From assembly GCA_043822705.1 (NCBI GenBank), contig JBDRBK010000060.1:1-64000 (forward strand): DNA of 64,000 bases, read 5' to 3'. This document shows positions 4,108 to 38,950 of the stretch, piece by piece. The notes below the pieces were generated by a model. The model saw nothing but the letters and a program-made list of their open reading frames with translations. It searched no databases and was not told where the DNA came from. The position numbers and the translations under genes are program-made. Each line of letters opens with the position of its first letter. The stretch's first letter is position 1. The DNA comes from Fidelibacterota bacterium. GTDB lineage: Bacteria > Fidelibacterota > Marinisomatia > Marinisomatales > TCS56.

Positions 4108-5124
4108 TCAGAAGATCGAATTAAGTATTTTCGGACTGCGCAGTTTCCAGCTGCCGCGATGATAGGCGTCGCTGATCAGTAGTGGCAAGTTGACGGTCGC
4201 CTCACCATAAACCATTTGCTCGTAAGTCACATCGACTTTGCCCCAGGAACAGGCTTCCTTCAGGGTCGAACCGGAAAGGGCGCCGTCGCGTTCGTCAGCC
4301 ACCGTCAATTGCAGGGCATATTTGTGCATCGGCTGCTCCTTACCCAGGATATCGGTGGCCACGACCACGTCCTGAGTGAAATTCTTGGGAACGCCGCCGC
4401 CGATCATCAGAATACCGGATTCTCCTAGGTGCAGTTTGATCTCAGTCAGCTCCTTGAAATCGGCCACGGAATCGATCGTCAGATGCCCGGCTGTATTGTG
4501 GATCTGGTGATAGATCAGTCCGAAGCCGGCGGAACAGTCGGAAAAGGCCGGCACGAAGATCGGGACCTGCCGCTGGTAGGCCGAGTAGACGATCGATTGG
4601 TCGCATTTCAATCCCTGCTCTTCCAGATACCGGCCCATGGCGGTGATGAATTCCCGGGAGGAGTAGGGCCGTGGTTCGAGGGTATCGGCGATTTTGGCGA
4701 TGGTCATGTCGCAGACCCGCAGCTCATCTTCATCGATATACGTGTCATAAATCCGGTCGATCGCCAGATCCCGCAGAACCAGGTCGTCGGCGGTGGGACT
4801 GCCCTGGTAGTGACAGAATCCCAGGGCCTCGAAAAAGTCCTGGTCGACGATATTGGCGCCGGTGGATACGATCGCATCGACCATGTTGTTTTCGATCATG
4901 TCGACGATAATTTTTTTCAAGCCGGCGGAAATCAATGAACCGGCCAGGGTCAGTATAATGCCGCAGTCGCGGTCGGCCAGCATGCGATCGTAAATATCGG
5001 CGGCGTTAGCCAGGTTGCGGGCCTGGAAAGCCATGCCCCGGAATGAATCGATCAGTGGTCGGGCATCGAAACTGGTGATGTCGATGTGGGCGATCTTATC
5101 TTTCAGAAAATTCTCTTTTTTCAA
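4108..5124 (-). CDS. Deoxyhypusine synthase-like protein (candidate homospermidine synthase)
   Basis: STGAN, RIYD, GGGVPKN, DGALSGSTLKEACSWGK (catalytic Lys motif EAxSWGK). Confidence 0.9.
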   Translation of the reverse strand: MKKENFLKDKIAHIDITSFDARPLIDSFRGMAFQARNLANAADIYDRMLADRDCGIILTLAGSLISAGLKKIIVDMIENNMVDAIVSTGANIVDQDFFEALGFCHYQGSPTADDLVLRDLAIDRIYDTYIDEDELRVCDMTIAKIADTLEPRPYSSREFITAMGRYLEEQGLKCDQSIVYSAYQRQVPIFVPAFSDCSAGFGLIYHQIHNTAGHLTIDSVADFKELTEIKLHLGESGILMIGGGVPKNFTQDVVVATDILGKEQPMHKYALQLTVADERDGALSGSTLKEACSWGKVDVTYEQMVYGEATVNLPLLISDAYHRGSWKLRSPKILNSIF

Positions 5125-6005
5125 CTTAATAAACCTTTTCGTTTGGCGGTTAGCAGGGAAATAAACTGGTAAATCAATTTAGCGGCCAGGAAATCCGGCG
5201 CCTTGTTGCTGGGGTTGGGCGCCAGTTCGGTCACGTCGAAGCCGACCACGTTTTTAGCACGGCAGACCGCTGTCAGGGTGTCGAGCACCTGGTACCAGTG
5301 CAGACCGCCGGGCTCGGGCGTCCCGGTGGATGGGACAAGCGCCGGATCGAAGCAGTCCAGATCGATGGTGACATAGACATTTTCAGTCAGACGTTCCACG
5401 ACCCGGGGGATGAAATCGACGCGATCGCGGATCTGATGGGCGAAGAAAGTCCGCACCGGCTGCAACAGCGTCAGCTCGCCGGCCTCCATGCTGCGGATAC
5501 CGACCTGGACATAGTCACCTAATTCCGCCGCCCGCGCCATGACACAGGCGTGACTGAAGCGGGAATTTTCATATTCGTCGCGGGTGTCGGAATGGGCGTC
5601 GAATTGCAGGACCGAAAGGTTGTCAAAACAGCGGTGATGGGCCCGGATCAGTCCGATGGCGACTGAGTGGTTGCCGCCAATCCCGATCACTGTTTTACCG
5701 TCCTGCAGTAGGGCCGTGGCGGTTTCGTCAACCCGCTCGACCAGGTCCTCGGCCGAGGTGAATCGATCGACCGGCGCCAGCGTCACGATACCATCGCGCC
5801 AGGCCTCGATCCCGGTGGGAATATCATACAGTTCCATGTTGGCTGACGCTTCCAGAATGGCGTCCGGTCCGCGATCGGCGCCTTTCAGCCAGGTCGAAGT
5901 CAGGTCGAACGGAACCGGTAGCACAACATAGCGTGCGGTTGCATATTCAGGGAATGGTTCGATCCCCCCGAATGCGCCGGGGTTGGGATGAAGGTTAACC
6001 TTCAC
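5121..6005 (-). CDS. speB: Agmatinase (ureohydrolase family)
   Basis: GGNHS, DAHSD, DLDCFDP, STGTPEPGGL metal-binding motifs. Confidence 0.88.
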   Translation of the reverse strand: MKVNLHPNPGAFGGIEPFPEYATARYVVLPVPFDLTSTWLKGADRGPDAILEASANMELYDIPTGIEAWRDGIVTLAPVDRFTSAEDLVERVDETATALLQDGKTVIGIGGNHSVAIGLIRAHHRCFDNLSVLQFDAHSDTRDEYENSRFSHACVMARAAELGDYVQVGIRSMEAGELTLLQPVRTFFAHQIRDRVDFIPRVVERLTENVYVTIDLDCFDPALVPSTGTPEPGGLHWYQVLDTLTAVCRAKNVVGFDVTELAPNPSNKAPDFLAAKLIYQFISLLTAKRKGLLS

Positions 6006-6024
6006 TGCGGCCTGTCAGGAAACC

Positions 6025-6426
6025 CTAATTCGGGAAATCGGCGCCGCGGTCGGTAAGGGCGACCTGGGGCGTTTTACTTTCCAGGGCTTCAATAATATAG
6101 GTTTTTGTTTTTTCAACGTCAAAGGGTTTGCATGAAAAAACATCAACAAAGGCATAATTCTTAAGCGGATAAGTGTGGATTGAAATATGACTTTCGGCAA
6201 TAATCACCACCCCGGTAATCCCGGCATCTTCCGGTACTTTTCCTTCGTAACGGAAAACATAGGGGCGGGTGATTTTGGTCATTCCAATCGATTCAGGTAA
6301 CGAATCCAATAAACGGTAGCAATATTCAAGATCATTCAGTTTGTCTGGATTGCAATTGCTAAGATCCAGCATCAGGTGGGGGCCATACCCGACTGTCTTG
6401 GTCATCCGGCATAAAATTCCTTTCAT
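6025..6426 (-). CDS. speD: Pyruvoyl-dependent AdoMetDC (SpeD/SpeH)-family decarboxylase proenzyme; may act on arginine
   Basis: G.HLMLDL, GITGVVIIAESHISIHTYP (E-S autocleavage site), DVFSC. Confidence 0.85.
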   Translation of the reverse strand: MKGILCRMTKTVGYGPHLMLDLSNCNPDKLNDLEYCYRLLDSLPESIGMTKITRPYVFRYEGKVPEDAGITGVVIIAESHISIHTYPLKNYAFVDVFSCKPFDVEKTKTYIIEALESKTPQVALTDRGADFPN

Positions 6427-7044
6427 ATAATTGTTCAGGGTTTAAAGCCTTTTTTCCCAAGGGAAAATAGCCGCCGACGTTATTAAAAAATAGAATACTA
6501 AGAAACAATTATATTCAATAAGTGAATAATATTTTCCCCAAGGATTCTTCTCCCGGGGCGGCTGGGAGTAATCCTGACTGCCAGGCTGATTTTTTTCCGG
6601 TTCGGGCCGCCGGATATAATATTCGGATTAACGGTCCGGTCGGGAAAAATTTCTTCCTGCGACAAAGTTGGACCGGGAATGTGTAAGTAGCTATAATTAA
6701 GATTGATAGACAAATCAATCGAGTCTTGGAATACTGAAAAAAAACTTTGGAAAATCAAAAAAATATATACCTGTTTTCTAATACATTTGTAATATTATGC
6801 AACGAAAATGACAATCATTAATTCACTTCAAAATTGTCACTATAGCCGACCGGTTTCGGACCGGCCGGCAGCCCGCGTTTTTACCGGATAAATCGTCGGT
6901 TATCCTCGTTATCTGAGGCCAAGTAAAACCGCAACCAGCCCAACCCGGTAAGCAATCCAAGGAAAGCAGTCCTGTCATCACCCCCTGCGTGCATAATGCA
7001 TTTAATTCACCCTCACGCATAAACCAAGAAAGGAGTTCCCGATT

Positions 7045-8361
7045 ATGGACAATACTCACATTGACCTGAAGCCCCCCAGCCAACGAAACAAAACCGGTTT
7101 GTCGATTTTAAATCAGGTTTCACTGCCTTCTAATTCCATTGTCTCAACTATACTCACCACCAATTTTTTTGAAGAACAAAAAAAATATCGTACTCGTCCT
7201 GCCTCTGCAGCCCAGATTTTCCGCAAGAAATTTTACCCGCAGGTAACGGCTGCCGAATGGGATGACTGGCGCTGGCAGCTCAACAAACGCATCCGTGATG
7301 CCAAAACAATCGGCGCGATGGTTAACCTGTCGGCGGCCGAGCTAAATTATTTCAATGAACGGAATGACCATTTGCCGATGGCGGTCACTCCCTATTATGC
7401 CAGCCTGATCGATCCCGATAACCCGGCCGATCCGATTCGCCGCAGCGTGATTCCGGTGACCGGCGAATTAACCAGTGCACCCGAGGAATCGGCCGATCCT
7501 CTGCATGAGGATGGCGACAGTCCGGTGCCGGGGATCATCCACCGTTACCCGGACCGGGTCCTGTTCCTGGTCACGGATTACTGTTCCGTCTACTGCCGTT
7601 ATTGCACCCGCTCGCGCCTGGTCGGCGGCGGCGGGGATTTCGTGTTTTCCAAATCGCAGTGGGAGGCGGCCCTGCAGTACATCGCCGCCACGCCCGCGAT
7701 CCGCGATGTCCTGATCTCGGGTGGCGATCCGCTGACTCTGGCCGACGAACGGCTCGAATATCTGCTGCGGCGGCTGCGGGCGATTCCGCATGTTGAAATC
7801 ATCCGGATCGGCACTAAAGTACCGGCCGTTCTACCACAGCGGATTACACTGTCCCTGACGCGGATGTTGAAAAAATATCACCCGCTCTGGATCAGTCTGA
7901 ATTTCATGCATCCGCGGGAGCTGACCCCGGAAGCCGGGCGGGCCTGCCAGCGGCTGGCCGATGCCGGTATTCCATTGGGCAGCCAGACCGTGCTGATGGC
8001 CGGCATCAACGACTCTGTCGAAACATTGAAGTCATTATTCCATGGTCTGCTCAAGCAACGGGTGCGGCCCTACTACCTGTACCAGTGTGACCCGATTCAG
8101 GGCAGCGCGCATTTCCGTACGCCGGTCAGCACCGGCCTGGAAATCATCCGGCAATTGCGCGGGCATACCAGCGGTTATGCCATCCCCAGTTATGTGATCG
8201 ACGCCCCCGGCGGCGGCGGCAAGATTCAATTGCTGCCCGACGCGGTGGTCCGCCGCAATAAGGATGGCTGGTATCTGCGCAGCTACGACGGCAAGGATTA
8301 TTTCTATCCCGATCCCAAGCCGTTGCGACGTCAGCAACAATCGCCGCCGAACGGGTGCTGA
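7045..8361 (+). CDS. KamA-family radical SAM amino-acid 2,3-aminomutase
   Basis: W.DWRWQL, HRYPDRVL, CSVYCRYC (CxxxCxxC), SGGDPL, PYYLYQCD, DAPGGGGK (PLP Lys). Confidence 0.92.
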   Translation: MDNTHIDLKPPSQRNKTGLSILNQVSLPSNSIVSTILTTNFFEEQKKYRTRPASAAQIFRKKFYPQVTAAEWDDWRWQLNKRIRDAKTIGAMVNLSAAELNYFNERNDHLPMAVTPYYASLIDPDNPADPIRRSVIPVTGELTSAPEESADPLHEDGDSPVPGIIHRYPDRVLFLVTDYCSVYCRYCTRSRLVGGGGDFVFSKSQWEAALQYIAATPAIRDVLISGGDPLTLADERLEYLLRRLRAIPHVEIIRIGTKVPAVLPQRITLSLTRMLKKYHPLWISLNFMHPRELTPEAGRACQRLADAGIPLGSQTVLMAGINDSVETLKSLFHGLLKQRVRPYYLYQCDPIQGSAHFRTPVSTGLEIIRQLRGHTSGYAIPSYVIDAPGGGGKIQLLPDAVVRRNKDGWYLRSYDGKDYFYPDPKPLRRQQQSPPNGC

Positions 8362-8365
8362 TTCG

Positions 8366-9361
8366 ATGCCCGGACGCAAACAAAAACGCCTGACGGTCGG
8401 CCTGACCTACGACCGCCGCTCCGACTATCTGGCGCTTGGCTACGGCGAGGAAGAAACGGCCGAGTTCGACCGTGACGACACGATTACGGCGCTTGACACG
8501 ACTTTGCTCAGCCTCGGCTATGCTACCGATCATATCGGCCATGTTCGAAACCTGATTCACCGACTGGACCAGGGCGAGCGCTGGGATCTGGTCTTCAATA
8601 TCGCCGAAGGACTTTACGGCGTCGGGCGGGAAGCGCTGGTGCCGGCCCTGCTGGACGCCTACCGGATACCGTATGTGTTTTCCGATCCACTGGTTCTGGC
8701 GGTGACGCTGCACAAGGGCATGACGAAGCGGATCATCCGCGATCTGGGACTGCCGACTCCAGATTTTGCCGTTGTCGAAAACGAAACCGAGCTGGCAGCG
8801 GTCGATCTGCCGTTTCCATTGTTTGTAAAACCGGTGGCTGAAGGTACGGGCAAGGGGATATCCGAACATTCGCTGGTGTCGACCAAGGACGCGCTGCAAC
8901 TGGTCTGCCGGTCGATCTGGCAGAATTTCCGGCAGCCGGCCCTGGTCGAAAGCTATCTGGCCGGACGGGAATATACCGTCGGAGTCGTCGGCACCGGTCC
9001 CCAGGCCCGCGCAGTCGGCGTCATGGAAGTAACCATGCTGGCCGGGGATCAGGATGAAATTTATTCCTATGAAAATAAGGAATTTTACGAGGAACGGGTC
9101 AGGTATGTCCCCTGTACCGGGCCTGAAGCAGCGGCCATGATCGAGCTGTCCCTGGCGGTCTGGCGCGGACTGGGTTGCCGCGATGGCGGCCGCGTCGACC
9201 TGCGCTGCGACGAACATGGCAAGCCCAATTTCCTTGAAGTAAATCCCCTGGCCGGTCTCCATCCGCGGCATTCCGATCTGCCGATTCTGTCCGGTCTCGC
9301 CGGTCTGTCCTACGCCGATCTGCTGCGGCAGATCATGGAATCGGCCTGCGAACGGCTTTGA
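8366..9361 (+). CDS. D-Ala-D-Ala ligase-like ATP-grasp amide ligase 1
   Basis: VFNIAEG, FVKPVAEGTGKGI, ESYLAGREYTV, RVDLR, FLEVNPLAG; lacks the canonical Ddl GGxSxE N-terminal motif; ATG at 8366. Confidence 0.85.
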   Translation: MPGRKQKRLTVGLTYDRRSDYLALGYGEEETAEFDRDDTITALDTTLLSLGYATDHIGHVRNLIHRLDQGERWDLVFNIAEGLYGVGREALVPALLDAYRIPYVFSDPLVLAVTLHKGMTKRIIRDLGLPTPDFAVVENETELAAVDLPFPLFVKPVAEGTGKGISEHSLVSTKDALQLVCRSIWQNFRQPALVESYLAGREYTVGVVGTGPQARAVGVMEVTMLAGDQDEIYSYENKEFYEERVRYVPCTGPEAAAMIELSLAVWRGLGCRDGGRVDLRCDEHGKPNFLEVNPLAGLHPRHSDLPILSGLAGLSYADLLRQIMESACERL

Positions 9362-10359
9362 TGAAAGCGCTTATTCTCCACGACACGGTCGCCGCCGATG
9401 CCGCCCCGGATACTCAGGACGTCCTGGTCCAGGCTCGGCATGTGCGGCAAGCGCTGGAAGAACTTGGTTATACGGTTGAAATAATCCCGGTAACACTCGA
9501 TATGGAAACGCTCCGCCGCCGATTGGTTACGGCCGGACCGGAAATCGTTTTCAATCTGGTGGAGTCGATCGCCAACCAGGGGTGTTTCAGCGCCTGGGTA
9601 CCGGCGTTGCTGGATTCCCTGGATTTGGCCTATACCGGCGCCAGTGCCGAGACGTTGTTCCTGACATCAAGTAAATTATTGACCAAACAATTGCTGCAGG
9701 CGCAGGGATTGCCGACACCAGCCTGGGAAACCAGAATATCACTGACTGGTGGAAAAGCATTTGAACCGGGCGAATATATTATCAAACCGGTCTGGGAAGA
9801 CGCCAGCATCGGTCTGGATGAGGATTCGGTTGTAGCGGTTGAAACGGCTCGGGAGCTGGCACACGCCTGGACGAAAATACCTGGCATCGATAGTCTGGAA
9901 TGTTTCGCGGAACGCTACATCTCCGGCCGTGAATTTGCTGTTGCATTGATTGCTGACGGCGATCGGGCATGGACGCTACCGCCGGCAGAAATGGTTTTTA
10001 ATGATTATGCTCCCGGTAAGCACCGGATTCTGGGCTACCGGGCCAAGTGGGACGAAGAGTCGTTTGAATATCGCCATACCAACCGGCGTTTCGACCTGCC
10101 GGCCGAAGATCATGCTCTGGCGCTGACCCTGACCGCGCTGGCCGACCGGAGCTGGTCCGCAGGTGGCGGTCGCGGATACGGCCGTGTGGATTTCCGGGTC
10201 GATGAGGCTGGCCATCCCTGGATTCTGGAAATCAATGCCAATCCCTGTCTGGCGCCGGATGCCGGTTTCACGGCTGCCGCCGAACGGGCCGGCCTGACCT
10301 TCACTGGAACAATCGATCTGATCGTCCGTGACGCACTCCGGCGTAAAAACCACAGGTAA
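9361..10359 (+). CDS. D-Ala-D-Ala ligase-like ATP-grasp amide ligase 2
   Basis: VFNLVES, IIKPVWEDASIG, ERYISGREF, RVDFR, LEINANPC; TGATG coupling to ligase 1. Confidence 0.85.
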   Translation: MKALILHDTVAADAAPDTQDVLVQARHVRQALEELGYTVEIIPVTLDMETLRRRLVTAGPEIVFNLVESIANQGCFSAWVPALLDSLDLAYTGASAETLFLTSSKLLTKQLLQAQGLPTPAWETRISLTGGKAFEPGEYIIKPVWEDASIGLDEDSVVAVETARELAHAWTKIPGIDSLECFAERYISGREFAVALIADGDRAWTLPPAEMVFNDYAPGKHRILGYRAKWDEESFEYRHTNRRFDLPAEDHALALTLTALADRSWSAGGGRGYGRVDFRVDEAGHPWILEINANPCLAPDAGFTAAAERAGLTFTGTIDLIVRDALRRKNHR

Positions 10360-10362
10360 ATA

Positions 10363-10881
10363 ATGAAATCCCGCCTACTGCAATTGTCTTTCCGTACCAC
10401 CGTTACCACCGCTGACGTGCATAACATTCGCCGCTTATTGCAGGCCAATAAACGTTATTTCTATCCGCACGAGGTCAAAACCGCCGTCGAACTGGTCACA
10501 GAACGACTCGCCAAGCGCCGTCGCAGCGGCTACTGGTTTATCTTTGCTGAATCTGAGGGACGAGTCGTCGGTTATACCTGTTTTGGTCCGATTCCCTGTA
10601 CGGCCGCCGGCTTCGATCTGTACTGGATCACCGTCCATCCCGACTGGCAGGGGCGGGGGATCGGGCGGGAACTGCTGGAAAGAACCGAGAAGGCCATCCG
10701 GCGGCGGCGGGGCCAACGGATTTATATTGAGACTTCCGGCCGGCCGGTGTACGCGACAACCCGCGCCTTTTATGGGCGCTGCGGTTATGACGAAACGGCG
10801 ATTCTACCGGAATTTTATGGTCCCGATGACGATAAATTCATCTATTCTAAACGAATGAGCGAGGCGGCTGAACAACAATAA
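10363..10881 (+). CDS. GNAT family N-acetyltransferase
   Basis: LYWITVHPDWQGRGIG acetyl-CoA motif A; FY..CGY. Confidence 0.9.
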   Translation: MKSRLLQLSFRTTVTTADVHNIRRLLQANKRYFYPHEVKTAVELVTERLAKRRRSGYWFIFAESEGRVVGYTCFGPIPCTAAGFDLYWITVHPDWQGRGIGRELLERTEKAIRRRRGQRIYIETSGRPVYATTRAFYGRCGYDETAILPEFYGPDDDKFIYSKRMSEAAEQQ

Positions 10882-10998: not shown

Positions 10999-11604
10999 AT
11001 GGAAAGTTTTTTTGATTCTACTCTGTTCCACTGGGTGATTCTGCCGCTGCTGATTTTTCTGGCGCGAATCCTCGATGTATCGATCGGTACGGTACGGATT
11101 ATTTTTGTATCCCGTGGTTTGAAAATGATGGCGGCTTTTCTGGGCTTCGTGGAAGTGCTGATATGGATCAGCGTCATCGGTCAGGTCCTGCAGAATCTGA
11201 CCAATCCGGTAACCTACATCGCATATGCCGCCGGCTTTGCCACCGGCAATTATATCGGAATACTGATCGAGCAGCGCATCTCGATCGGTAAAATCATCAT
11301 CCGGATCATTACCGCCGACAACACCGATGATCTGCGCAAACATCTGAAATCGCACAGCATCCGCTACACTGTCATCGATGCCGCCGGCAGCACCGGCAGC
11401 GTCCAGTTATTATTTACGATCATGGACCGTAGTAAACTCCCGCTTATGCTGGAAAAAATCAATAAGTACAATCCCACTGCGTTTTATTCGATCGAGGATG
11501 TCCGGCAGGTTCGCGAGGGCGAATTCCCCGGTTCGTTCCGGCCAGTCAACGCCCGGCGACCGTTTTCCCGGATCCGGCAGTTTTCGATCATGAAGAAGAA
11601 ATAA
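10999..11604 (+). CDS. DUF2179/UPF0316 family membrane protein (N-terminal TM helices, C-terminal PII-like domain)
   Basis: ARILDVSIGTVR, YAAGFATGNYIG, C-terminal AFYSIEDVR. Confidence 0.8.
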   Translation: MESFFDSTLFHWVILPLLIFLARILDVSIGTVRIIFVSRGLKMMAAFLGFVEVLIWISVIGQVLQNLTNPVTYIAYAAGFATGNYIGILIEQRISIGKIIIRIITADNTDDLRKHLKSHSIRYTVIDAAGSTGSVQLLFTIMDRSKLPLMLEKINKYNPTAFYSIEDVRQVREGEFPGSFRPVNARRPFSRIRQFSIMKKK

Positions 11605-11609
11605 CCGCC

Positions 11610-12899
11610 ATGTCGTTGATCAACGACTATATCGCTCAATATCTGCGCGAGCTGGATTTTTACCGCGAAGTGGCCCGCATCTGCGCCCAGCAATGTGAGA
11701 ACGAACTGGAGCAGAATGGTATCCGCGCCATCGTAACCAATCGGGTGAAACGCTCCGACCGGGTCCGGAAAAAAATCGAGGCGCGCAATAAAAAGAAGCA
11801 TTACCGCAATTTCGAAGATATCAGCAATGATGTCATGGACCTGGCCGGGGTGCGGATCGCCCTGTACTTTCCGGCGGACCAGACGGAAGTGGACCGGATC
11901 ATAAAAAATGGCTTCGAGGTACTCAAAATAATCGAATTTCCCAAGCCGCCGGACACGGAAAAATTCAAGCGCAGCAATCCCGGTTACCGGGCCGTGCATT
12001 ACCGGGTGCGGCTCCAGAAAAAAAATCTGTCGGACTCCCAGTTGAAATTCCTCAGCGCCAATATTGAAATCCAGGTAGCTTCGATCCTGATGCACGCCTG
12101 GGCGGAGGTGGATCACGATCTGGTTTACAAATCAATCGACAAGGCCCCGTCCGCCGAAGAAATTGATATTCTGGAAGAGCTGAATGGTCTGGTCCTGCTG
12201 GGTGAGAAAGTGCTGAATCGCCTGTACAAGAGTATCGAACGGCGGGTCGAGCGTGAAAATTTCTCCAATCACTATGAACTGGCGGCCCATCTCTATTCCC
12301 TGGTTAAAATCAATCCGGTCGGTACGGTCGCCGAGCCGGACATGGGCCGGACCGATATTTTATTCCGCTTCCTGACCTCGATCGATGGCAATAATCCCGG
12401 TTTTCTCCAGGAACGGGTCAAGCATATCCGGTCCGACCTACCGGTTGTCCGGCAGATTGTCGACGACCTGATCTTTGCCGACGCCCGGCTGTATGATTTA
12501 TTCATCAGCGCCAAGCAGGAGGTCGGCGCCCGTGCACCCTATGATTACAACGATACCTATTTCCACAAGGAGTTGACCAGTAACCTGCGACGGGACTTTT
12601 TACGCGTGTGGATTATGCTGGAAAAAATTACCGATTCGATAAAAGGTGATAAACTATCGCTCCTGTGTAATGAAGACCTGATTACGTTCGCCAGAAAATG
12701 GTCGTTACCCGATAAAGACCTGATGTCACTGGAGAAATTCAAGGATCTACGCAACGATCTGATTCACGGACTGGATCCGCCGTCACCCCGGGTACTGGAA
12801 GAAGGAATCGCCACGCTTAAGGGAATTCTTACCGTAATTTCACCCAGCTTGCCCGAACGGTTGCGGACCGAAATAAAACGTCTCAAAATATCGGGGTAA
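11610..12899 (+). CDS. RelA/SpoT-domain small alarmone synthetase with C-terminal HEPN-like domain
   Basis: Synthetase motifs RVK, DLAGVRI, GYRAVHY, EIQVASILMHAWAEVDHDLVYK; C-terminal FLRVWIMLE...LRNDLIHG (RxxxxH). Confidence 0.85.
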   Translation: MSLINDYIAQYLRELDFYREVARICAQQCENELEQNGIRAIVTNRVKRSDRVRKKIEARNKKKHYRNFEDISNDVMDLAGVRIALYFPADQTEVDRIIKNGFEVLKIIEFPKPPDTEKFKRSNPGYRAVHYRVRLQKKNLSDSQLKFLSANIEIQVASILMHAWAEVDHDLVYKSIDKAPSAEEIDILEELNGLVLLGEKVLNRLYKSIERRVERENFSNHYELAAHLYSLVKINPVGTVAEPDMGRTDILFRFLTSIDGNNPGFLQERVKHIRSDLPVVRQIVDDLIFADARLYDLFISAKQEVGARAPYDYNDTYFHKELTSNLRRDFLRVWIMLEKITDSIKGDKLSLLCNEDLITFARKWSLPDKDLMSLEKFKDLRNDLIHGLDPPSPRVLEEGIATLKGILTVISPSLPERLRTEIKRLKISG

Positions 12900-13024: not shown

Positions 13025-13423
13025 ATGGATAAACCGATCTCGGTTAAAGATATCATGGCCAGGAATATTATTACTTTTCATCCGGACCAGAATGCCTCCG
13101 AAGTCATTGATCGTCTAATCGGCGCCGGTATTTCCGGAGGCGCGGTCGTCGATGCCGAAAATCGTCTGATCGGCGTCATCTCGGAGAAGGATTGTCTCAA
13201 AACGATCGTCAAGTCGTCCTACTACGACAGCATGGGCGCCCTGGTTTCCGATCTCATGTCCACAACCGTAGCAACTGTGGATGCCAACGACAGCATCCAC
13301 TCGGTGGCCCAGAAATTCCTGGATTCCCACTACCGGCGTTTTCCGGTCCTCGAGGATGGAAAGCTTATAGGTCAGGTCAGCCGCCGCGACATATTGCGGG
13401 CGGTCCAGCACATTCCGCATTGA
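13025..13423 (+). CDS. Stand-alone CBS-domain pair protein
   Basis: VKDIM..., GVISEKD, VSDLMS, FPVLEDGKLIGQVSRRD. Confidence 0.9.
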   Translation: MDKPISVKDIMARNIITFHPDQNASEVIDRLIGAGISGGAVVDAENRLIGVISEKDCLKTIVKSSYYDSMGALVSDLMSTTVATVDANDSIHSVAQKFLDSHYRRFPVLEDGKLIGQVSRRDILRAVQHIPH

Positions 13424-35799: not shown

Positions 35800-38790
35800 T
35801 CAGTCGCGGTCTTCCCAGGCCGGGCAGAGCAGTTCCTTATAGTCGCACCAGTCGCAGTGCATCCCTTTTTCGGGGTCGAAGCGGCGCTGGTTGATACCAC
35901 CCACGACTTCCCGGATTTTATTCAGGAATTCATCCAGTTCGGCAACGCTGAAACGATGGGAAAATTCCGGTTCTGCCTGGCGCAGGAATAACAGCGAAGC
36001 TTTCTCCGGCAGGCCCCCCGGTTCCCGGTCGCTTTGCCGGGCCAGGAACAAGCAGTAGACCGCTAACTGCAGGCTGTCCTTCGGTTCGCTGGGTTTCTTG
36101 CTGGTTTTATAGTCGACCACCCCGATACCGGCGCCCTCCCGGTCGATCCGGTCGATCTTGCCGCGGATTGTACAGAAATCCAAGTCGAATTTGAATTTGT
36201 ATTCCGTTTCCAGAACCTGCGGCGGACTTGCCTGAAAGTAGCGGAAATAATTCTTCAGGATTTCCACGGCCTGTTCGCGGAAACTCAGCTCACGGGACTG
36301 GTAGTCGAAGCCTTCCGATTGCCAGAAGCGGTCCAGCAATTCCAGCAGTTGCACTTCGGTGCCGTCGCCCTCGCGGTGGAAATGCTCCAGCACCTGGTGG
36401 ATGATATTGCCGAAGGTGAGTTGCGGCTTGCTGGCAGTCTCGGGCACGTTGTCGATATAACCGAGGCGGTATTTGAGCGGGCAGGCGGCGTAGGTCTCGA
36501 TGGCGCTGGCGGAAAGGACCGGATGGGCCGGCACCTCCGGCAGTGGCTGGCCGGCCAGTTTTCCCTGCAACTCACGTTCCCAGTCGGTCGAGCCCCAGGC
36601 GATTGATTCGCCGCGGGTCACGGCGGTCAGCTGTTCCAGCGCTGCGATCAGATCCCGGGCCGTGTCAAACTGATCCTGGGACAGGGCGGCGTTCAGCCGT
36701 TGTTCATAGGCGACGCGCAATTCATTGTAAACATCCTGGCCGTTGTCGGCAATTACTGGTTCCATCACGATTCTCCGGGTCAACTCGGTTGGGATTTCCT
36801 TGATAAACGGTGAGCAGCGTTTTTCCGGGGCCAGCAGGATCAGTCGTTCCCGCGCCCGCGTGATCGCCACGTAGAACAGCCGCCGTTCCTCCTGGCGGTG
36901 CAGATCTTTCGACGGCAGATCGACGGTGCCGGCGAACGGCTGCCATTCCGGCGGTGGTTCGGCCGTCAGCCGGTCCGGCCGGTAATTCAGCGGGAAACGC
37001 TGGCTCTGGTTGTAGGGCACGATCACTACCGGGTATTCCAGTCCCTTGGCCTTGTGGACGGTCTGCACGGTGATCGCCGCCAGGTGCGCTGGCCGGGGCG
37101 GTTCCATTGCCGGGATCGCGTCGGCCCGTTGCAGTGTCGCCATGAAGCGCAGGAAGCGTTCCAGTGAATTGTCATTATAATGACGGCGGCTGAATTCCTG
37201 GGCACGGGCGATCAGATCGCCGACGTTGGTCAGGGCGATCTGGTCGGTGTATTCGTAGCGGCGGGCATAGGGGCGCAGCAGGGCCGTCGCCCGGAAGATT
37301 TCCCAGACCATTTCGCCGGCGGTTTTACGGCGCTGTTGCAGATGCTGCCGGAGGTCGTCGATCCGGCGGATCAGGTCAATCACTGGTTGCGGCAGCTGTG
37401 CCGGGTCGTCGGCTAAATCCCGCAGCAGGCGCAGGCGGCTGGTCAGGTCACGCCGCGAATAGGCGCCGTACAGGCTCCGGGCGGCGGCGGGTCCGATCGT
37501 CCGGATCAGCAGGCGATAGAGGGCATTGTCGGCCTGGGGACCGTCGGCGACCACCTGGCACCAGGCCAGCAGGTCACGGATCACCGGCAAGTGGAAATAA
37601 TCGGTCAGGAAAATGCTCACCGGCAGATGAACCCGCTGCAATTGCCGGGCGGCTTCCCGGGCCTGGGCGCGGGTGCGACAGAGTACGGCGATATCACCGA
37701 AGGCCCGGCCCTGGGCGAGTAATTCGTCGATGATCGCCGGCAGATTGCCGTTCTGCGTGGTGGTGTCGCCGATGTACAGCAGCGGCCGGTCACCCGTCGG
37801 CCGATGCGGATTGACCAGCGTCTTGGGCTGGCGGCCGTGATTATTGGCGATCACAACGTTGGCGGCGTTCAGGATCGGCTGGACCGAGCGGTAATTCTCT
37901 ACCAGGGCGATTTCACGGTAATCAGTAAAGGCCCGGTAGCGGGCCTGGAAATCCTGGATATTATAAGCACTAGCCCCCCGGAAGCTGTAAATCACCTGAT
38001 CGTCGTCGCCCACAACGGTGATGCTGCCCCGGTTTTCAGCCAGTTTGCCAATGACGGCATTCAGGGCGAAATTGTTATCCTGAAATTCATCGATGATCAG
38101 ATGCCGGTAGCGCTCCTGGAGTTGTACCAGGATGGCGGGATCGTCCAGCAATTGCTGGCAGAGCTGGATCATGTCACCGTAATCCACCAGGCCTTCGGCC
38201 CTTTTCCAGTCCTGGAAGATACCATACACCCTGGTCAGGTCCTGTAACTGGGCAGCCGGTTCCTCTGATTCATCGTCACTGCCGCTGGGAACTGATTGCC
38301 GGGCGGGATCGATCAGGGCGTCGCGCAGGTGGTTGAAGAACGGCAGGAACGAATTGCTCACGGTCCGTACCGGGTCCTGTGGGAATTCCCGCGACTCGAA
38401 CGGCGCCAACTCGTCGAAACGATCCAGCAGCATAAATAGGGCGTCGCCTTCCTCCATCAATACCGGCGGCCGCTCCGGTTGGAAAGCGAATTCCCGCACT
38501 ACGCCGTAGCAGAAAGCATGGAAAGTGCCGACGGTCAGTTTTTCGGCGGCGGCGCCGATCTCGGCAATGATCCGGTTTTTCAGTTCATCGGCCGCTTTTT
38601 CAGTGTAGGTAATGACCAGCAGATTTTCAGGCGCCAGCGCGTAATGCTCGATCAGATGGATTATGCGCTGGATCAGGGTCGTGGTTTTACCAGTTCCGGC
38701 CCCGGCGATTATCATCAGCGGCGCCGGCGGATGGGTGATCGCCGCGGACTGGGCGGTGTTGGCGGTGAAGTCTCCCCGTGAATATGGCAT
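35800..38790 (-). CDS. UvrD/PcrA-like SF1 helicase fused to a PD-(D/E)XK (AddB/Cas4-like, Fe-S) nuclease
   Basis: AGAGTGKTT, IDEFQD, EERRLFYVAITRAR; GKIDRID..DYKT, QLAVY; Cys in ACPLKY plus CDWC...C. Confidence 0.9.
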   Translation of the reverse strand: MPYSRGDFTANTAQSAAITHPPAPLMIIAGAGTGKTTTLIQRIIHLIEHYALAPENLLVITYTEKAADELKNRIIAEIGAAAEKLTVGTFHAFCYGVVREFAFQPERPPVLMEEGDALFMLLDRFDELAPFESREFPQDPVRTVSNSFLPFFNHLRDALIDPARQSVPSGSDDESEEPAAQLQDLTRVYGIFQDWKRAEGLVDYGDMIQLCQQLLDDPAILVQLQERYRHLIIDEFQDNNFALNAVIGKLAENRGSITVVGDDDQVIYSFRGASAYNIQDFQARYRAFTDYREIALVENYRSVQPILNAANVVIANNHGRQPKTLVNPHRPTGDRPLLYIGDTTTQNGNLPAIIDELLAQGRAFGDIAVLCRTRAQAREAARQLQRVHLPVSIFLTDYFHLPVIRDLLAWCQVVADGPQADNALYRLLIRTIGPAAARSLYGAYSRRDLTSRLRLLRDLADDPAQLPQPVIDLIRRIDDLRQHLQQRRKTAGEMVWEIFRATALLRPYARRYEYTDQIALTNVGDLIARAQEFSRRHYNDNSLERFLRFMATLQRADAIPAMEPPRPAHLAAITVQTVHKAKGLEYPVVIVPYNQSQRFPLNYRPDRLTAEPPPEWQPFAGTVDLPSKDLHRQEERRLFYVAITRARERLILLAPEKRCSPFIKEIPTELTRRIVMEPVIADNGQDVYNELRVAYEQRLNAALSQDQFDTARDLIAALEQLTAVTRGESIAWGSTDWERELQGKLAGQPLPEVPAHPVLSASAIETYAACPLKYRLGYIDNVPETASKPQLTFGNIIHQVLEHFHREGDGTEVQLLELLDRFWQSEGFDYQSRELSFREQAVEILKNYFRYFQASPPQVLETEYKFKFDLDFCTIRGKIDRIDREGAGIGVVDYKTSKKPSEPKDSLQLAVYCLFLARQSDREPGGLPEKASLLFLRQAEPEFSHRFSVAELDEFLNKIREVVGGINQRRFDPEKGMHCDWCDYKELLCPAWEDRD

Positions 38791-38950
38791 GGGTGAAATT
38801 AAGTCGGCGCGCCGCAAACGGGGAACTGTAAAAGTTGACTGGTTCAGTGCGATGCTTAATATAGGACGGCTGGGAAGGAAGGGACGTCGAAGGTCAGGTT
38901 ATCCAGAGATTTGGCGTTTCCGCTCTTAGCTCTTTGCTTGGGTAGCCCCC

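Follow-up and report, generated by a model that had tools for sequence, protein, structure and literature searches.

A gene in the window, the whole 64,000-nt stretch of Fidelibacterota DNA analysed here, joins a RelA/SpoT synthetase to a HEPN domain in a single chain, and this fusion is a real, undescribed variant within the known FunRel family of small alarmone synthetases (SAS). We read its product as a self-restrained, single-gene growth-arrest effector of the abortive-infection type, in which an added RNase arm would accompany a synthetase core; this reading is tentative, with a probability of roughly 0.4. The fusion was not found described in the literature searched, although subscription journals and supplements, chiefly those of comparative genomics, could list it. 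In related work RelA-type and HEPN domains appear as alternative effectors, and not fused (PMC3153485, PMC7159879, PMC13069673, 10.1101/2022.07.19.500537, 10.64898/2026.10.19.760177).

Domain layout of the protein

The AlphaFold model of the 429-aa protein, built with a 112-sequence alignment, has a pLDDT of 89.9 and a pTM of 0.82. The chain runs from an alpha/beta synthetase through a long helix, a helical middle domain and a flexible linker to a four-helix tail (helices at residues 320-345, 354-363, 368-386 and 393-413), and its C-terminal half is wholly helical. The features of the gene and its two neighbours are as follows.

10999..11604, + strand: DUF5698/DUF2179 membrane protein, 5 bp upstream of the fusion gene, context only (Pfam)
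11610..12899, + strand: whole gene, FunRel-type small alarmone synthetase with middle domain and HEPN (429-aa ORF, AlphaFold)
11610..12245, + strand: aa 1-212, RelA/SpoT synthetase domain ending in a long helix (PF04607, RelQ fold match)
11742-12134, + strand: Pfam RelA_SpoT core, aa 45-175 (PF04607, E 1e-13, above cut-off)
12246..12539, + strand: helical middle domain, aa 213-310, with NHYEL/GRxDxL/QIxD motifs (conservation; no Pfam family)
12567..12848, + strand: four-helix HEPN domain, aa 320-413, carrying W334/E338 as well as R381-N382-x3-H386 (profile and structure matches)
12750..12767, + strand: predicted RNase motif RNDLIH, R381-H386 (sequence and homologue conservation)
13025..13423, + strand: CBS-pair protein, downstream of the fusion gene, context only (Pfam)

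The first-pass annotation had reported intact synthetase motifs in the N-terminal part, and all of these residues are there (R45/K47/K55/R59, D77/R82, Y126/H130, E153/Q155, E166/H169). It had also seen no hydrolase, TGS or ACT domain; the Pfam scan likewise gave RelA_SpoT only, with HD, TGS and ACT not found, so that the protein has the make-up of a small alarmone synthetase. The tail signature that it quoted, FLRVWIMLE, begins at F330 (12597), and the RxxxxH is RNDLIH, placed correctly at R381-H386. Between synthetase and HEPN it overlooked a conserved helical domain of about 100 residues (aa 213-310).

The synthetase head

In structure searches, residues 1-212 matched RelQ (5dec) with a Z score of 18.0 (rmsd 2.8, 182 residues aligned), and RelQ/RelP structures as a group (Z 16-18; 6ewz, Z 17.3) ranked above CapRel (12.0), Tas1 (10.6) and FaRel (7.8). 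The catalytic residues align with those of the RelQ/RelP-type structures, and across the family the 12 synthetase catalytic residues are identical to those of the query in 187 of 188 loci, every architecture included.

The head motifs DLAGVRIALYFP and EIQVASVLMHAW are common to rows labelled funRel, one of them fungal, in the supplementary alignment of Jimmy et al. 2020 (PMC7229694). The same supplement records FunRel[S] for all four homologue-bearing strains that are present in it; a fifth strain looked up, Streptomyces parvus, was absent from the portion searched. Judged by these sequence comparisons, the synthetase head belongs to the FunRel subfamily. FunRel is one of 30 SAS subfamilies, also the one given for fungi (PMC7229694), and has been described as paraphyletic (10.1101/575399); no experimental study of it was found in the literature searched. 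In fungal NLRs, RelA_SpoT serves as a canonical N-terminal domain (10.1101/2024.11.26.625400), and we infer that these fungal domains are FunRel. No clear signature of tRNA-targeting enzymes is reported in the Kurata preprint (10.1101/2021.04.30.441581), and the product of the synthetase is not readable from its sequence.

Two relatives carry other SAS families (L082 in G010 and L083 in G047), the latter with a C-terminal extension of about 350 aa. At two loci (L064:3910-7588 and L125:2108-7290) a long Rel/RelA gene is found no more than two genes away from FunRel.

The HEPN tail

The first-pass annotation had called the tail HEPN-like and proposed a check of its RxxxxH in homologues. The motif alone is weak: RxxxxH turns up in 7.7% of shuffled tails (RNxxxH in 0.24%), and the synthetase has another RxxxxH at aa 59-64. 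It is conserved, however, among 113 homologues of 380-480 aa taken from the 120 listed of 747. R381 is kept in 110 of these, N382 in 102 and H386 in 101, with R and H together in 98, W334 in 111 and E338 in 105, all within a domain whose mean pairwise identity is 26%. We therefore take the tail motif to be real.

Profile and structure searches point the same way as the conserved motif. A profile of 33 motif-bearing tails had the HEPN domain of ApeA as its best PDB match (E 5e-5), with W..E and RNxxxH aligned. For aa 319-420 the structure search returned 1wwp (Z 8.3, rmsd 3.4, 96 aligned), 2hsb (7.5), 8xdj (7.4) and 1ylm (7.1); the top rows for the C-terminal model were mostly HEPN-bearing chains, and the HEPN toxin structures 8xdj and 5yep were among the fold matches. 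In the case of a helical bundle, Z scores of 7-8 are moderate, and they carry weight only in combination with the RxxxxH motif. The tail combines a four-helix fold with an Rx4-6H that ends helix 3, a polar residue after the R and an upstream acidic residue, as in the HEPN superfamily, for which the motif was defined as Rx4-6H by Anantharaman 2013 (PMC3710099).

No curated Pfam HEPN family matched the query protein, and homologues matched RiboL-PSP, HepT-like, DUF4145, Cthe2314 and Swt1 at weak E values of 1e-4 to 1. PADLOC run on the query gave a weak match to Csx1/Csm6 HEPN (E 0.006), a partial PDC-S33 match across the synthetase and no ApeA match. Foldseek, used with a single-sequence model of aa 211-429 that is of low confidence across the middle domain, found nothing with an E value of 0.001 or lower. 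Against 1.84 billion proteins, the HEPN profile recovered family members and apparent fragments, and none of the 143 new rows had a clear second architecture. Because the profile recovers mainly the fusion family and its fragments, the tail seems to represent a branch of HEPN that is unmodelled and linked to the FunRel-type synthetase. HEPN domains fused behind nucleotidyltransferases usually lack Rx4-6H and have a regulatory role (PMC3710099); RxxxxH kept across many phyla is an exception to that rule.

Family architecture and distribution

Homologues were collected as 747 proteins, the best 80 of 496 GTDB loci, the best 80 of at least 566 metagenome loci and 28 viral loci. The tails of the best 80 GTDB loci comprise 34 intact HEPN domains, 21 degenerate ones, 13 TPR tails, 10 absent and two cut by a contig end; the script had given 35 intact, 20 degenerate, 13 TPR and 12 short, and L027 was reassigned by hand as degenerate and L032 and L046 as contig-cut. 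Among the best 80 metagenome loci, 60 tails are intact, 14 degenerate, one is TPR, four are missing and one is cut. Of the viral loci, seven have intact HEPN and seven a different tail; the other 14, on large contigs, are extended at the N-terminus. Plasmids gave one partial match and GenBank phages one distant match.

In a quick tree of the heads, built without the two contig-cut rows, loci with intact HEPN are dispersed among many phyla, and the TPR forms (one clade), the tail-less forms and most degenerate forms fall within Bacillota. With the root unsure, this fits an ancestral HEPN with repeated loss. The query is a long branch in the tree, without a strongly supported placement, and neither 60 relatives nor 300 other genomes of the phylum yielded a full-length member.

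In close pairs of other family members, purifying selection acts on each of the three domains, degenerate HEPN tails included: dN/dS is 0.07-0.09 and 0.15 for these tails in five pairs, and 0.03-0.16 for intact ones. Selection as strong on degenerate as on intact tails means that the HEPN fold matters without catalysis.

Several clades have an anatomy of their own. In a Bacillota clade (L012/L014/L037/L038/L047/L055/L062/L063/L067 and kin) the HEPN His is replaced by Tyr or Phe; the gene keeps a stable site between a beta-lactamase-family gene and malic enzyme, and its tail is under purifying selection. A clostridial clade (L011, L021, L023, L028, L031, L034, L040, L042, L044, L057, L058, L065, L075) has about 260 aa of TPR-like repeats instead of HEPN and sits in housekeeping contexts. 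Seven copies, from P2-like prophages (L092, L095-L097, L104, L106 and L111; about 5980-7305 in most), consist of FunRel with a tail of about 150 aa without RxxxxH, directly behind an integrase in all five checked. Longer members with extra sequence also occur (P0264, 827 aa; L197:5977-7656; L068:1020-2663), and P0264 was the one match with a full core among the four found in a search for longer fusions.

Fourteen large-phage proteins, from IMG/VR contigs of 55-463 kb (L091, L093, L094, L098-L103, L105 and L107-L110), form a clade with the 12 catalytic residues intact and no middle domain, fused to an InPase-like domain. The N-terminal extension is InPase in the one protein scanned with Pfam, and in L093 the synthetase is apparently inserted inside the InPase domain. 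Most of these fusions lie just upstream of a gene of more than 1,100 codons, and their architecture matches the theme of polyvalent proteins (PMC5512222).

Two motifs of the middle domain were scored. They were present, respectively, in 126/139 and 130/139 HEPN-type or cut proteins, in 13/14 and 13/14 tail-less ones, in 12/14 and 13/14 with TPR, in 7/7 and 0/7 integrase-linked prophage proteins, and in 0/14 and 0/14 large-phage proteins. The likely restraining element is not HEPN but the middle domain, which the large-phage forms alone lack. A search of Atlas structures with the middle domain gave no match with TM 0.5 or more, from which neither novelty nor absence follows.

Genomic context of relatives

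Genes around the homologues were compared at 29 of the 34 intact GTDB loci (150 of 152 ORFs), 26 of the 60 metagenome loci with an intact tail (dereplicated, 4 kb or longer) and 27 of the 46 other GTDB loci. A defence-domain neighbour within two genes was found at 14 of 55 HEPN-intact loci (L009, L018, L019, L022, L053, L069 with Hachiman, L076 by PADLOC, L118, L139, L141, L170, L177, L193 and L194) against 0 of 27 others (Fisher p 0.003), with classes judged by hand, L139 and L177 sharing a context, and PADLOC run on the HEPN-intact side only. This contrast may reflect lineage, since the comparator is nearly all Bacillota and the Bacillota-type HEPN-intact loci are also without such a neighbour (0 of 9; p 0.14 against other phyla). 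The remaining 41 of the 55 have no recognised defence neighbour, and the tail-less and TPR forms lie in housekeeping contexts without any antitoxin. At one locus (L118:3494-8248) a close homologue sits among caspase-TPR, DUF4062-pYEATS and dCTP deaminase genes, a possible conflict island.

No neighbour gene is conserved across lineages in the 80 GTDB loci, among protein-coding ORFs of at least 70 aa; the conserved adjacent antitoxin gene of a two-gene toxSAS toxin-antitoxin system is therefore missing on this scale.

Six of the seven viral HEPN-bearing copies (five distinct) lie among P2-like tail genes. L087 and L088 are between tail-fibre assembly and sheath genes, a position that we take to be the P2 Z/fun locus. 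Z/fun has been named as a defence hotspot (PMC13586616). Near L084 and L086 there are PD-T4-10 and PD-T4-2/NsnA-like genes. Three of 5426 E. coli genomes, two of which are the same strain, have a copy 99.6% identical to that of L087; it stands at the end of a defective lambdoid prophage, at a tRNA-Thr gene. The fusion family is probably of defence origin.

The copy in the window

Here the fusion gene stands in a co-oriented housekeeping run, with the DUF5698/DUF2179 gene before it and the CBS gene after it, and a scan of 39 other ORFs of the window gave no defence domain. The first-pass annotation had proposed a single-chain effector. The single chain is borne out by the lack of a cross-lineage partner gene, and relatives are often in prophage cargo or defence islands; the housekeeping surroundings of this copy speak against an effector. 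A single long Rel, which carries an HD domain, was found in the genome, and no separate SAH (hydrolase).

GC3 of the gene equals the genome mean (0.64; 0.53 in the HEPN part). A 93-95% identical gene without indels occurs on contigs from two runs of one study, and contigs of X1 bridge it to both neighbours. Sixteen codons are among the listed differences between the query and this close relative, 13 synonymous, two non-synonymous and one start codon, with 165 further differences lying beyond those listed. The query departs from the consensus at 11 of 84 near-invariant sites (other homologues, mean 2.3). Decay to a pseudogene was considered and rejected, as no departure falls among the 12 catalytic residues and synonymous changes outnumber non-synonymous ones by 13 to two among the differences listed. 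Scans for promoters, terminators and repeats around the gene gave nothing above chance, and there was no visible insertion scar. In a search run without a positive control, the genomes of 12 relatives yielded no copy of the DUF2179 gene that lies upstream here. We infer that the copy is a maintained, long-resident foreign gene.

Elsewhere in the window, genes for deoxyhypusine synthase, an arginase-family protein and SAM decarboxylase (4108-6426, - strand) are divergent from genes for KamA, two ATP-grasp proteins and a GNAT protein (7045-10881, + strand), and both groups are linked to polyamine metabolism. At 35800-38817 (- strand) a UvrD helicase and a PD-(D/E)XK nuclease are joined in one AddA-like protein of 1005 aa.

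A model for the fusion and its alternatives

HEPN RNases act as dimers. In the growth-arrest reading, the middle domain would hold the synthetase off until a phage or stress cue lifted the restraint. The synthetase would then use ATP to pyrophosphorylate a purine nucleotide or the tRNA 3' end, and the HEPN domains would form dimers that act as a second arm by cleaving RNA, probably tRNA; a phage that reversed one lesion would still face the other. The synthetase is likely to be the core output, because it is indispensable whilst the tail is optional. The copy in the window would be an old lateral acquisition, by now at home in a housekeeping operon and with neither site lost. In favour of the model are two catalytic motifs that are intact and conserved, the lack of a partner gene common to the lineages, a constant synthetase beside a variable tail, the P2-like and lambdoid prophage positions, the defence-domain neighbours, the middle-domain motifs found in most cellular forms and in none of the large-phage fusions, and a patchy distribution. 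Against it stand the absence of a recognised defence neighbour at 41 of the 55 HEPN-intact loci and in this window, the possible lineage effect in the neighbour contrast, the constraint on degenerate tails, the housekeeping contexts of tail-less and TPR forms without antitoxin, a GC3 at the genome mean, and structural Z scores that are middling.

Of the other readings, the one that survives best, though we think it improbable, is an ordinary, non-toxic stress (p)ppGpp synthetase in a RelP/RelQ-like role, with HEPN as a structural or oligomerising appendage. It would explain the housekeeping context here and at most loci, and it agrees with RelQ/RelP as closest structures, above CapRel, Tas1 and FaRel, with the existence of tail-less forms, and with a long Rel whose HD domain could clear (p)ppGpp, a separate SAH not having been found. 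Such an appendage does not account for the selective retention of R, N and H in a domain of 26% mean identity, nor for prophage cargo positions, defence neighbours and a very patchy distribution.

We regard as unlikely a signal-to-effector chain, like that of Csm6 or ApeA, in which a nucleotide made by the synthetase would bind the middle domain or HEPN and activate the RNase as the sole killing output. By profile the closest solved HEPN is that of ApeA, which is reported to be ligand-activated and to cleave tRNA anticodons; the weak PADLOC match to Csx1/Csm6 HEPN and the co-conservation of both sites in the widespread form also fit. The synthetase is, however, unchanged where HEPN has been lost, including the seven other-tail prophage copies and the 14 large-phage fusions, and a known nucleotide-sensor domain was not found in the protein. 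The more specific proposal of a one-protein immune circuit, in which a pyrophosphorylated nucleotide made on infection by a RelA/SpoT-family enzyme activates a fused HEPN RNase, is also unlikely by our estimate. If the synthetase product did activate the RNase, this would be a new type of second messenger in bacterial immunity: an alarmone in the part played by cyclic oligonucleotides in CBASS and type III CRISPR, and in the bacterial branch of a family that fungi also carry.

Doubtful too is a fused toxin-antitoxin like CapRel, with the synthetase as sole toxin and the C-terminal slot as sensor or auto-inhibitor rather than nuclease. TPR repeats fill that slot in 13 of the best 80 of 496 GTDB loci, degenerate HEPN is still conserved, and nucleotidyltransferase-fused HEPN domains are usually motif-less and regulatory (PMC3710099); R and H are nevertheless both kept in 98 of 113 homologues, and ten tail-less genes without a partner imply that the tail is unneeded for restraint. 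The kinship with HEPN-MNT that the first-pass annotation had drawn on, taken as an in-cis RelA/SpoT antitoxin that covalently modifies a HEPN toxin, has the shared Pol-beta fold and the toxin structures 8xdj and 5yep on its side and is very improbable, given that the Tyr of RX4HXY is found in two of 99 motif-bearing homologues and is absent here, that GSX10DXD is missing, that the RelA/SpoT residues are those of pyrophosphate transfer, and that the synthetase is retained where HEPN is lost.

Comparison with known systems

HepT/MntA (HEPN-MNT) resembles the fusion in coupling a Pol-beta-fold enzyme to a HEPN RNase. Here there is one gene, the enzyme is a pyrophosphokinase and not an adenylyltransferase, and the RX4HXY and GSX10DXD motifs that mark class I (PMC7641770) are absent; we do not count the protein as a HEPN-MNT member. 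ApeA, a single-gene HEPN anti-phage RNase, has only the HEPN motifs W..E and RNxxxH in common with the tail, and is without a synthetase. RelQ and RelP, the housekeeping SAS, are the top structural matches of the head, with catalytic residues that line up; they differ in sharing about 20% identity, in an NCBIfam score of 45 bits against a cut-off of 320 and in lacking the query's 220 extra residues, and the fusion family is patchy and mobile in its distribution.

CapRel, a fused toxSAS that acts as a tRNA pyrophosphokinase in phage defence, is likewise a single-chain SAS with a C-terminal extension, although the fold match (7ztb, Z 12.0) is restricted to aa 1-201. Its C-terminus is a pseudo-zinc finger (PMC11782079), an antitoxin domain that this protein does not have; here a helical domain and HEPN take that place, and the subfamily differs. 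FunRel itself was defined from the synthetase alone, and HEPN tail, middle domain and experiments are absent from the passages that describe it (PMC7229694). With the present analysis FunRel gains a domain anatomy of synthetase, middle domain and swappable tail, together with a testable role in phage defence; WP_052318513.1, an allele native to an E. coli prophage, lends itself to a direct test.
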